Source of the DNA: Candidatus Heimdallarchaeota archaeon
Lineage (GTDB): Archaea > Asgardarchaeota > Heimdallarchaeia > JABLTI01
DNA: 45,508 bases
Direction: 5' to 3'
NCBI GenBank assembly: GCA_019056785.1
Contig: DXJV01000021.1
Span: 1 to 45,508 of the forward strand
In this document: positions 30,071 to 33,100 of the stretch, piece after piece
Layout of the letters: each line of letters opens with the position of its first letter
How positions within the stretch are numbered: the first letter of the stretch is position 1
The notes under the pieces: generated by a model
The model's input: the letters and a program-made list of their open reading frames with translations, nothing else
Told to the model about the DNA's origin: nothing
Databases searched by the model: none
Position numbers and translations under genes: made by a program

Positions 30071-30784
30071 TTATTTCATCACATCAGATGAAGTGAGTTT
30101 TGTCCAGCGCTTCGCTTCACCAGAACGTATTTTCTTGAATTCTGGCAAATAGCGTAACAGAATAACTAGGATAATACCAAAACCATATACAATTGTAAAG
30201 GCTATCCCATAGGTTCCATCAGTTAGAAATGGATGTGGTATCGGTTGAACAATCTGCATACTCGGTCCAATCAGGTCAATAATGAAGAAGAAGGGCGAGA
30301 TAAAAGATACTCCCCAGACTGAACCAACGCCAGAATAACCTGAGAGGAGGCTTAAGAGCCCAATCAAAATGGGGAAGATGAGGGGAGACATTGGCCAGTA
30401 GAAAAAGAGTAATGTGCCTGCCATTGTTCCAAGTCCTTTTCCACCCTTGAAGCCTAAATAAGGCATCCAACAATGCCCTGCAACAGCAGCAAGAGCAGTT
30501 AAAACTACAATATAATCAAGATTTGGATGAGCCGGACAAATAGCAAATTCAACAATTGCACATGCTGCAGCGCCTTTCATCATGTCTGTGAAACCATTAA
30601 CCAACCCCCAGGGGAAAAAGCCGCCAGTGGCTCGAATGACATTTCTGGTGCTAACCGAACCGGAACCAAATTCCCGGGGATCAATACCTTTCACCAGCTT
30701 GCAAATTATATATGCTGTTGGAAAACCACCAAAAAGAAAACCTATCAGTGGCCCGACAAAAAATTGCCAAACTAAAGATGCCAT
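30071..30784 (-). CDS. plsY: PlsY-family glycerol-3-phosphate acyltransferase homologue with non-canonical motifs 1 and 3
   Basis: DPREFGSGSVSTRNVIR, DMMKG, AGHCW..GFKGGKG; multi-TM; GGTGA RBS. Motif 3 reads RYLPEF instead of RHxxNI. Confidence 0.85.
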   Translation of the reverse strand: MASLVWQFFVGPLIGFLFGGFPTAYIICKLVKGIDPREFGSGSVSTRNVIRATGGFFPWGLVNGFTDMMKGAAACAIVEFAICPAHPNLDYIVVLTALAAVAGHCWMPYLGFKGGKGLGTMAGTLLFFYWPMSPLIFPILIGLLSLLSGYSGVGSVWGVSFISPFFFIIDLIGPSMQIVQPIPHPFLTDGTYGIAFTIVYGFGIILVILLRYLPEFKKIRSGEAKRWTKLTSSDVMK

Positions 30785-30927
30785 TGTTTGTAATCACCAT
30801 TAATACTCTATTTTGAGATATTGACTTTCACCTTTTTAGCTGTAAAGCTTTCAAGTTTTTAACATTTTTGTAGGCCATTAAATAATGCTTAGGAAGAAGC
30901 ATCGCTCTCTTTTTCAATAGTGTTTTT

Positions 30928-32331
30928 CTAATTGGCTGTTTGCTTTTCAGGTATAACTTCTTGGGTTTCAGTGTGTTTATTGCCAAAATCGCGCATTGAT
31001 TTTGCCTTCCGTAGTTTCTTCGTGAGGGCATAATTCAAATGTTCGAATCCAAACTTGAAATCAATTTTTGACCAGAGGTAAACGAATAGTTGCCAGAAGC
31101 CCACAAAAGTTATCACAAAGAGAATGATCCCCCACCAGCTATACATAAAGGCATCCTTATCGCCCCAATCAACTACTTTATGTGGAGGAAACATTAGGTG
31201 AAAGGAGGTTGCAATTGATTCATTAATAAAGGCTTCAAGCACATAGAGTGTTAATGTTACTTGCCCAAAATTACGAACAATTTTTGTCTTATTTTTAATT
31301 GCCTCCACTTTCTCATCAGGTATATATTCAAATTTCTTCACCAATAAAACGAAAATCAAACACATACATCCAAGGCTGAAAAAGAGAAGCTCACGGGGAT
31401 AGATTCTATAAGAGAAGAGAACCTCAAAAATGTCTCCACCGACTTTAAGAGTGTTATTGATGGTAAAGCCCATGTTAATTATGAATGCTGCTAAAAAGGT
31501 GAACCCGAACCCAAAACCAAACTTTCTGATCGTTTTGAAGTCAGTTTTCATAGCGATTAAATAGCCACCGATCATCCCAAAGATTGCATATAACCCTATT
31601 GGAAAATATGTTAGTTGTTCGCCAATAAACACACGCAATACAAGCGCTAGAAACCAAAAAATTCCTCCTTTTGCTTTCCCGAGTTCAATGTATGGTGCAA
31701 GCCAATTATTGAGGGGGTTATTAATTAATACTAAAACAACACCCAAAGTTCCAAGGATGATAACATTCCTCCTTACTTTTTCCCTACCATTGCCAGCAAA
31801 GAGAATCCAAAGCAAGAAAACAGTTACAAAACCTGCAACAGCAATTGTAGGTAAGATTAGCATTCGGAAAAATCGCTCAGCGTCCGGCCAAGGGAGATCC
31901 CATCCATTATAAAGATTAGTAAAAAGTGAGGAAACATTCCCCATACTTGGGCGTTCAAAAAAGAATCCCTTAATTGGTGAGACAAGAAATAGAAAGGTGC
32001 TGTTAAGTAAGATGGGAGCAACTGCACGACGGAAAGGCATGCCTTTCTCTGTCCGTTTGAAAATATTATAGGTATTAACTATACCACTCATAAAGGTAAA
32101 ACCTCCACCCCAAGTAAAAAGCACGATTATTGGAAAGAGAGTGATCAACGCTGGAGTTGGTACAATTTCAAGAGCATTGGTATCAGTTCGCCAAGTGCCA
32201 TAAACCATGGGATGAACAAATAACACACCGATAATTGCCACACCACGCATAATATCAACAGAAAGCAATCGTTTCCGATTCGCTGGTGGTTTTGGCAGAG
32301 AATCTTCTAGAACACGAGAAGTTGTTTCCAA
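30928..32331 (-). CDS. HGSNAT-catalytic/DUF418-like transmembrane acyltransferase
   Basis: N-terminal RLLSVDIMRGVAI...H, FTFMSG, C-terminal FGQVTLTLY...W..FGFE; about 11 TM. Confidence 0.75.
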   Translation of the reverse strand: METTSRVLEDSLPKPPANRKRLLSVDIMRGVAIIGVLFVHPMVYGTWRTDTNALEIVPTPALITLFPIIVLFTWGGGFTFMSGIVNTYNIFKRTEKGMPFRRAVAPILLNSTFLFLVSPIKGFFFERPSMGNVSSLFTNLYNGWDLPWPDAERFFRMLILPTIAVAGFVTVFLLWILFAGNGREKVRRNVIILGTLGVVLVLINNPLNNWLAPYIELGKAKGGIFWFLALVLRVFIGEQLTYFPIGLYAIFGMIGGYLIAMKTDFKTIRKFGFGFGFTFLAAFIINMGFTINNTLKVGGDIFEVLFSYRIYPRELLFFSLGCMCLIFVLLVKKFEYIPDEKVEAIKNKTKIVRNFGQVTLTLYVLEAFINESIATSFHLMFPPHKVVDWGDKDAFMYSWWGIILFVITFVGFWQLFVYLWSKIDFKFGFEHLNYALTKKLRKAKSMRDFGNKHTETQEVIPEKQTAN

Positions 32332-32412: not shown

Positions 32413-33100
32413 TTAGTGAGTGTGGTTTACTGTGATTACACAAAAAATACTCGAGTTGTCCACTTCTTCAATAATCGCTTCGAGTCCGAGTTTGTTAACC
32501 AGTTGTTGGAAGTCTTCTCTTGAAAAAGTTGTTGCTCGAAAGTCATCTTTACCAATTATTGCCCCGTTGCCTGTTTTTTCAAGATCAATCTCTCCCAACA
32601 GGCCGGCTTTTGCTTGCTGGAGAAACCATTCCAAGCGAGCTTCCCAGATCTTTTCAGAATAACTAGAGAGAAGAACCTTCCCTTTGTATTTTGTTACCCG
32701 AAGACTCTCTTGGATTACTATTTCAGGAGCAACTTTGAAGGCTGAAATGCCATTTTGAATTGCAAGTACCACATCAAATGTTTGAGGAGGAAACTCTAAG
32801 GCTTTGACATTCATCTTGAGTAATTCTATAGTGTTCAATCCTGTTAAGTACTCTTGCAAAATTAAGGCTCGCTTTAGAAGTGTCAATCCCAAAAACTTTT
32901 GCTGCATTTGGAGCAAGCCGTTTCAATACTTGGCCATACCCACACCCCAACTCGAGAATAATATCTGTTTTTTTAATATGGTTTAAAACAAAGTTAATTT
33001 CAGCAGATAAATATTGTTTTATCCTTTCATTTGCAATATCATAGCATTGTTTCAATCGCTCTGCAGAGAGTTTTTCACTGTAATATTTGTCTTCTTGCAT
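32413..33100 (-). pseudogene. Class I SAM-dependent methyltransferase split by one frameshift
   Basis: ORF 32774..33100 carries ILELGCGYG and GIDTS up to SLNFA; ORF 32413..32916 continues EYLTG..TFDVVL..LRV..GKV. Junction about 32851-32857. Confidence 0.82.

Follow-up and report, generated by a model that had tools for sequence, protein, structure and literature searches.

Does the PlsY-like gene of this Heimdallarchaeota contig encode an ordinary glycerol-3-phosphate (G3P) acyltransferase, or has its active site been turned to another use? The locus bears on a wider matter: among prokaryotes, no group known is closer to eukaryotes than the Asgard archaea, and their capacity for bacterial/eukaryotic-type ester lipid synthesis is an open question of the 'lipid divide', a debate in which genes annotated as 'PlsY' routinely serve as evidence. 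PlsY homologues of the same gene family have been published for Heimdall, Loki and Thor bins, where their function was termed unknown (Coleman 2019, PMC6431249; review PMC9385802; PMC13400652); the PlsY passages of these papers, to which our comparison is confined, say nothing of the altered residues, the three-type clade, the multiplication of copies across the family or the pairing with degV described below. A literature search also returned no paper combining Heimdallarchae* with DegV or FakB. The window, by which we mean the whole analysed stretch of 45,508 nucleotides, holds one such gene, here called type B, which is most likely a young, dispensable paralogue and not the housekeeping glycerol-phosphate acyltransferase. 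It is to be noted that all the genomes compared are metagenome bins, for which gene absence means 'not found', and that the host assembly (2.87 Mb) is itself 82.5% complete.

Translation of the minus strand gave 237 amino acids from an ATG without an internal stop, and a putative ribosome-binding sequence precedes the start codon (Table 1); the intact frame with its ribosome-binding site, as first annotated, was thus borne out, and the N-terminus, MAS[LI][IV]WQFF, is common to all near orthologues. The protein matched Pfam PF02660 (G3P_acyltransf) with E 7.1e-30 and 104.7 bits (cut-off 24.1) over profile positions 1-161 of 164, and by sequence its sole solved relative was the PlsY of Aquifex aeolicus (E 3e-11). 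An AlphaFold2 model built on 150 sequences (pLDDT 95.1, pTM 0.92) showed the seven-transmembrane PlsY fold, and Foldseek at E<=1e-3 matched this model only to five chains of Aquifex PlsY (5xj5-5xj8; TM 0.68/0.80). Since the profile, the Aquifex sequence match, the model confidence and the structure search all agree, the predicted fold and the superfamily are without doubt those of PlsY. Against TIGR00023, the NCBIfam equivalog for PlsY (EC 2.3.1.275), the score was 92.6 bits, below the cut-off of 137.2.

The 467-residue membrane protein upstream had zero Pfam matches; its language-model features and Atlas structure liken it to HGSNAT, acyltransferase-3 and DUF418 membrane acyltransferases, which we take as a lead only. 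Its synteny with type B is seen only in a 98%-identical relative and not around a 73% orthologue, and a conserved operon around the window copy was rejected on this ground. Farther upstream, the gene of a class I SAM methyltransferase has lost 2 bp (AG) from an AGAGAG run and reads as two ORFs, while in the 98%-related genome it is unbroken, at 229 amino acids; the split may reflect either a pseudogene or an assembly error.

Table 1. Location of the features discussed; plain positions refer to the window, and prefixed positions to contigs or loci of the genomes compared.
Feature	Location	Strand	Basis or remark
CDS, PlsY-family type B paralogue, 237 aa + stop	30071..30784	-	ORF, profile and structure matches
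Start codon ATG of type B	30782-30784	-	translated ORF
Shine-Dalgarno-like GGTGAT, 8 nt 5' of ATG	30793..30798	-	consensus match only, putative
Motif 1, GSGSVSTRN, residues 40-48	30641..30667	-	codons read, alignment
Motif 2, GHCWMPYLGFKGGKG, residues 103-117	30434..30478	-	codons read, alignment
Codon of S155 (= Aquifex S142, second glycerol 2-OH ligand)	30320..30322	-	alignment
Motif 3, RYLPEFKK, residues 211-218	30131..30154	-	codons read, alignment
467-aa multi-pass membrane protein, co-oriented, upstream of type B, 143 bp gap	30928..32331	-
Split class I SAM methyltransferase	32413-33100	-
Unbroken SAM methyltransferase, 98%-related genome	L041:7689-8378
Other seven PlsY paralogues of the host genome	C98:134398-134931, C94:28772-29311, C92:5431-5907, C57:53506-54135, C4:2660-3235, C93:10042-10638, C95:9754-10266
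fakA-degV-plsY operon, examples	G175:C6:63849-66403, G181:C88:3084-5640, G183:C47:17730-20240
degV linked to type B, G175	L071:6438-7331
PLAT/LH2-domain gene upstream of the degV-type B pair, G175	L071:7506-7913
Homologue of the PLAT/LH2 protein, host genome	C99:5913-6320
C74 degV, host genome	C74:25043-25912
degV beside the C92 PlsY paralogue, host genome	C92:6208-7062
degV beside the C93 PlsY paralogue, host genome	C93:9050-9901
Fragmented degV, type B and patatin	L074:3767-6587 (GCA_019058195.1), G177:C52:55569-57853
PlsY-like fusions, other Asgard class	L057 = G083:C106:5000-9600, L058 = G049:C25

The active site can be read against that of Aquifex PlsY, for which crystal structures and mutants are available. 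In those structures, acyl-phosphate is received in a 'phosphate hole' built from motif 2 together with H92, its acyl carbonyl is bound by T41, and the oxyanion is probably stabilised by N37; the phosphate of G3P is clamped by S35, R45, K104 and N180, the glycerol 2-OH is held by S142 and H177, and motifs 1 and 3 make up mainly the G3P pocket (PMC5700162). The substrate itself assists catalysis, in which His177 does not act as a base (PMC5700162). Our residue equivalences rest on HMMER and MAFFT alignments plus the fold match, rather than on superposed coordinates. All three motifs of the first-pass annotation, motif 2 being given there as GH..FKGGKG, were confirmed codon by codon. The phosphate hole (H92 and G102-G103-K104-G105) was found complete, H104 and K116 standing for H92 and K104, with H104 and FKGGKG invariant. 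The clamp retains three of its four residues, S41, R51 and K116 for S35, R45 and K104, and carries E215 (GAA) in place of N180. At the acyl carbonyl and oxyanion, T41 and N37 are replaced by R47 and S43; among the ligands of the 2-OH, Y212 (TAT) replaces H177, and S155 is present. Further changes in motif 1 are G39 to S45 and A40 to T46. The first-pass claim of a lost motif 1 Asn holds for the first Asn (N37) and fails for the last, since N42, here N48, is invariant in every aligned sequence. Its broader proposal, that the phosphate pocket is kept and the other chemistry changed, fits the crystallographic assignment, motif 2 being conserved and motifs 1 and 3 altered (PMC5700162).

These states are uncommon in the family at large: at the T41 position, 7,288 homologues have Thr in 86% and Arg in 3%, and among the nearest representatives outside the clade of type B (n=107) the canonical residue is present in 83 at T41, 92 at H177 and 89 at N180. 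Single substitutions in the Aquifex enzyme left 0.03% of activity for H177Y, 2.3% for N180Q, 4.8% for T41A and 18% for N37S, and N180D retained 3.3% with a 22-fold increase in Km (PMC5700162). Considering these mutants together with the residue frequencies, the residue set of type B, if placed on a canonical scaffold, would be expected to leave almost no G3P acyltransferase activity.

Are these changes a conserved design or the debris of a decaying gene? Homologue searches covered 5.8 billion clusters and 1.84 billion representatives, and only three representatives reached E<=1e-30 with type B, ordinary PlsY following at no more than 40% identity; the closest group is a small set of Heimdall/Asgard proteins, and a search with the C-terminal half recovered near orthologues of type B only. 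Within the taxonomic class, matches at E<=1e-20 occurred in all 11 relatives of the same family and in none of 72 genomes of the class outside that family. The relatives of type B form a clade of three paralogous types, A, B and C, all from one Heimdallarchaeial family. In the tree, B (support 98) is sister to A (98), followed by C (99), and the whole clade is monophyletic (99), separated by a long stem from canonical PlsY. Type A, with RHxPEF in motif 3, lies in a conserved locus, HSP20-CDC48-HTH-A, whose neighbours (HSP20, CDC48 and the HTH protein) gave no clue to a lipid; type C has RL/MxPDF.

In all 48 clade sequences, S41, R47, N48, R51, H104 and K116 are invariant, as are G114, G115 and G117 of the phosphate hole. 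R47 underwent no change on the tree, and residue 215 is Glu or Asp throughout with a single change. Residue 212, on the other hand, is labile, with six changes among His, Tyr, Leu and Met. The motif 3 His, which the first-pass annotation counted among the near-invariant residues, is replaced by Tyr in the window copy, but it does not serve PlsY as a catalytic base, and within the clade His and Tyr alternate; the changes that define the clade are T41 to Arg and N180 to Glu or Asp rather than His>Tyr. Pairwise dN/dS of type B, calculated on unsaturated pairs only, was 0.040-0.125, comparable to that of type A (0.06-0.24). Of the residues whose conservation under purifying selection the first-pass annotation wished to see checked (Tyr/Glu and SVSTRN), R47 and the acidic residue 215 are conserved, with low dN/dS, and residue 212 is not.

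That type B is decaying in this strain, with His>Tyr as a recent inactivating transition, is barely credible. The 2-bp frameshift of the neighbouring methyltransferase and a type B pseudogene in one relative speak for it; the frame is nonetheless intact, the comparison with the 98% identical orthologue in the sister genome gave a dN/dS of 0.040 at a dS of 0.18, and Tyr212 recurs in nine of the 16 type B sequences from metagenomes and in all four intact genomic orthologues. With no clade member carrying RHxxN and dN/dS at 0.04-0.13, strain-specific decay was rejected.

The lability of residue 212 is itself patterned. Within type B, eight sequences pair Ser155 with Tyr212, seven pair Ala155 with His212 and one pairs Ala155 with Tyr212; at least two to three branches show a joint switch of the two positions, and none shows them changing in opposite directions, although a sign test of this covariation was not significant, there being too few independent events. 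Because both positions jointly hold the 2-OH in Aquifex PlsY, the pattern suggests that Tyr212 with Ser155 and His212 with Ala155 are alternative working solutions, and also that a glycerol-like hydroxyl may still be read there, in which case an ordinary acceptor would fit equally well. Type B could then be a PlsY isozyme that runs the ordinary reaction, acyl-phosphate plus G3P or glycerol-1-phosphate (G1P) to 1-acyl-glycerol-phosphate, in a pocket rebuilt by compensation: R47, held by E215, would substitute for N180 at the phosphate, and Tyr212 with Ser155 for the His at the 2-OH. We regard this as rather unlikely. Of 11 functional residues six are retained, as is the entire fold, the covariation is consistent with a maintained 2-OH contact, and bacterial PlsY takes both G3P and G1P (PMC13400652). 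P0162, an unrelated metagenomic protein outside the clade (GSGNVGARN ... HYYEWRR), also has Arg for T41 together with Glu for N180, and may be an independent occurrence of the pair. Single substitutions at these sites, however, nearly abolish the activity of Aquifex PlsY, and the related 'b/c' copies of the neighbouring Heimdall family, f2, carry the Arg without the Glu, so that R47 and E215 are not an obligate pair.

The genomic setting bears on the same issue. PlsY-family genes number 4-13 in each of the 12 family genomes, against 1-3 in other sampled Asgard genomes. The host assembly has eight PF02660 genes, none of them canonical, and six of the other seven form a separate group without S35, mostly without R45, and without the HxxN motif. 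The notion that the window copy is the only PlsY of its genome was consequently rejected, and the first-pass label of an archaeal PlsY homologue needs dividing: type B is a PlsY-family protein with a conserved non-canonical site, but it is one of eight and not the organism's PlsY orthologue. A canonical PlsY (GSGNTGFSN..R, FKGGKG, RHRDNIKRL), grouping with bacterial PlsY on the tree, is present in eight of the 11 relatives as one high-scoring copy each, and in at least seven of those eight it stands last in a fakA(Dak2)-degV-plsY operon. Such an operon is the Firmicute-type route from fatty acid through acyl-phosphate to lysophosphatidate. It was not found in the host assembly, G176 or G179; the genes that flank it elsewhere have no close match in the 82.5%-complete host assembly, so loss and an assembly gap look alike here. 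For an ordinary reaction in type B, it counts that no canonical copy was found in the host assembly; on the opposite side, intact type B and a canonical copy coexist in G175, G181 and G183, and type B was not found in five of the 11 relatives and is broken in one. Its occurrence is patchy even within the single genus that has it: of the 10 other genomes there, four carry it intact and one carries it broken.

The source of the acyl-phosphate was linked by the first-pass annotation to PlsX, which was found neither in the window nor in the 82.5%-complete assembly; the link to PlsX is not needed, since the lineage has FakA and DegV genes. FakA is present in nine of the 11 relatives, and about nine degV copies were counted in the host assembly. 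FakA was not found in that 82.5%-complete assembly, so that, with PlsX also missing, no known acyl-phosphate source is visible in it. PlsC (PF01553) was not found in any of the 12 family genomes, though nine have FakA and eight canonical PlsY, and for the second acylation step there is, as judged from sequence, no candidate among known families. GpsA gave no match above cut-off in the host genome, where two Fe-ADH_2 matches are candidates for a G1P dehydrogenase.

The family genomes have 5-23 degV matches each, and 28 of 96 family PlsY genes have a degV no more than 1.5 kb away, where chance would give about 1.75; counts over related genomes are not independent, and the 28 may therefore represent perhaps eight orthologous pairs. 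Type B lies directly downstream of degV on the same strand in four of six genomes (G175, G179, G181 and G177), where the gap between the ORFs is 29 bp in both G175 and G179, and that between the Pfam matches about 113 bp throughout; the window copy is without a degV neighbour. In one lineage, in G177 and in GCA_019058195.1, degV, type B and a downstream patatin are all fragmented (Table 1), and the fragments recur in an independent Logan assembly; the called neighbours at L074 (GCA_019058195.1) are full-length. This is a co-decay of a three-gene module. In G175, a small PLAT/LH2-domain gene lies just upstream of the degV-type B pair, and a 61% homologue of its product is encoded elsewhere in the host genome; PLAT/LH2 is a lipid-binding domain, mostly eukaryotic.

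The carriers themselves are altered. In FakB a His binds the carboxylate, and in S. suis FakB2 it is H264 (PMC10848957). The DegV of the fakA-degV-plsY operon retains this His, and the type B-linked DegV has Phe in its place and may therefore not carry a plain fatty acid. An own-genome orthologue of this DegV could not be assigned, the best match (C74) being only 45% identical, with uninformative neighbours, although it too has Phe; the DegVs beside the C92 and C93 PlsY paralogues have Tyr at this position.

Could type B, then, be a PlsY-fold protein without catalysis, serving as a membrane receptor or channel for a DegV-carried lipid, or as a regulator? The catalytically important N37, T41, H177 and N180 are all changed, the linked DegV is without the carboxylate-binding His, and no acyl-phosphate source was found in the host assembly. 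Yet H104, G114, G115, K116, G117, S41 and R51 are held invariant in the 48 clade sequences, and the phosphate hole, along with S41 and R51, would be of little use to a protein that did not bind a phosphate ester. Loss of the His does not by itself end catalysis either, since the reaction of PlsY is substrate-assisted and needs no protein base. We consider a non-catalytic role quite improbable on balance.

The Arg at the acyl-carbonyl position could alternatively mean a different donor for type B: another carboxylic-phosphoric anhydride, or an isoprenoid phosphate, with Arg47 reading the changed group beside the phosphate. T41, the sole side chain at the acyl carbonyl, is Arg across the clade and the f2 'b/c' copies, the head-group residues of the partner DegV are altered, and another Asgard class fuses PlsY-like domains to a domain resembling CTP-dependent lipid kinases or CdsA, the last point being a lead only. 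That fusion belongs, however, to a different PlsY subgroup, and isoprenoid monophosphates are poor alkyl donors. A changed donor has, in our estimate, only a slim chance of being correct. As to the fusions as such, the C-terminal membrane domain is of about 200 residues, three tandem copies occur on one contig, and the domain had zero Pfam matches; its likeness to CTP-dependent polyprenol/diacylglycerol kinase or CdsA comes from language-model features, with a score of 0.94.

The reading we prefer, and to which we give an even chance, is that type B is an accessory, DegV-linked acyltransferase that depends on acyl-phosphate and has a remodelled acceptor pocket. From the fold, residue states, conservation, purifying selection, paralogy and gene linkage observed above, we infer its donor, acceptor and catalysis as follows. 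The phosphate hole of H104 and FKGGKG would retain the donor site for acyl-phosphate, and S41, R51 and K116 would still clamp the acceptor phosphate; given this kept donor site and the three clamp residues, transfer of an acyl group from acyl-phosphate is the most likely reaction. The acyl-phosphate would be made by the family's FakA and delivered by a carrier of the DegV/FakB type. R47 and S43 stand in place of the acyl carbonyl and oxyanion contacts of Aquifex PlsY, E215 in place of the fourth clamp residue, and Y212, alongside S155, in place of the ligands of the 2-OH. The acceptor would then be a phosphorylated, hydroxyl-bearing molecule bound otherwise than sn-G3P is in canonical PlsY; with the acceptor, and perhaps the carbonyl, positioned differently, type B would make another product than the operon PlsY does. 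The candidates for the acceptor would be the 2-OH of 1-acyl-glycerol-phosphate (PlsC being absent from the family), G1P or an ether lyso-lipid, and dihydroxyacetone phosphate (DHAP). That type B is an ordinary glycerol-3-phosphate acyltransferase is unlikely, as it probably holds its acceptor differently.

A bolder version, which we put forward as unlikely but worth stating, is that the family runs a hitherto undescribed lipid-transfer system of co-expanded DegV/FakB-like carriers and PlsY-like transferases, both with replaced head-group residues, in which the A/B/C reaction would be novel for PlsY, for example acylation of a lyso-lipid at the 2-OH in place of PlsC, or acylation of G1P or an ether precursor. 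If true, archaea closely related to eukaryotes would have ester lipids or mixed ester/ether ones. For the 'lipid divide', the immediate message is one of caution. The 'PlsY' annotation in this Heimdall family covers at least four kinds of protein, of which, by sequence, only the fakA-degV-plsY operon copy looks like a true G3P acyltransferase; type B belongs to a conserved clade with a rebuilt acceptor pocket, in a family that is also without PlsC, and such genes are not proof of bacterial-type membranes. These proteins, together with the back-mutations R47T, E215N, Y212H and S43N, offer a concrete panel for finding out what these archaea acylate.

Among known systems, the closest comparison is with Aquifex PlsY (PDB 5XJ5-5XJ9), which has the same seven-helix fold at 23% identity. 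Type B keeps its phosphate hole (H92 and GGKG), its clamp residues S35, R45 and K104, and N42, and departs from it by N37>S, G39>S, A40>T, T41>R, H177>Y and N180>E, by about 25 extra residues in a loop (about 170-195) and by a conserved C-terminal tail, GEAKxW...K. The genus's own canonical PlsY, such as that of the G175 operon on contig C6, belongs to the same Pfam family and is likewise adjacent to degV, but scores 155-164 bits on PF02660. Nearer still, types A and C and the f2 'b/c' copies share with type B the Arg at the T41 position, a non-canonical motif 3 and the C-terminal GEAK tail; the f2 copies, which join the A/B/C clade at an SH-aLRT of 83, read SRQxxNF and so retain the Asn. Type B differs from type A in its distribution, being genus-restricted and patchy, whereas type A is present in all 12 family genomes.
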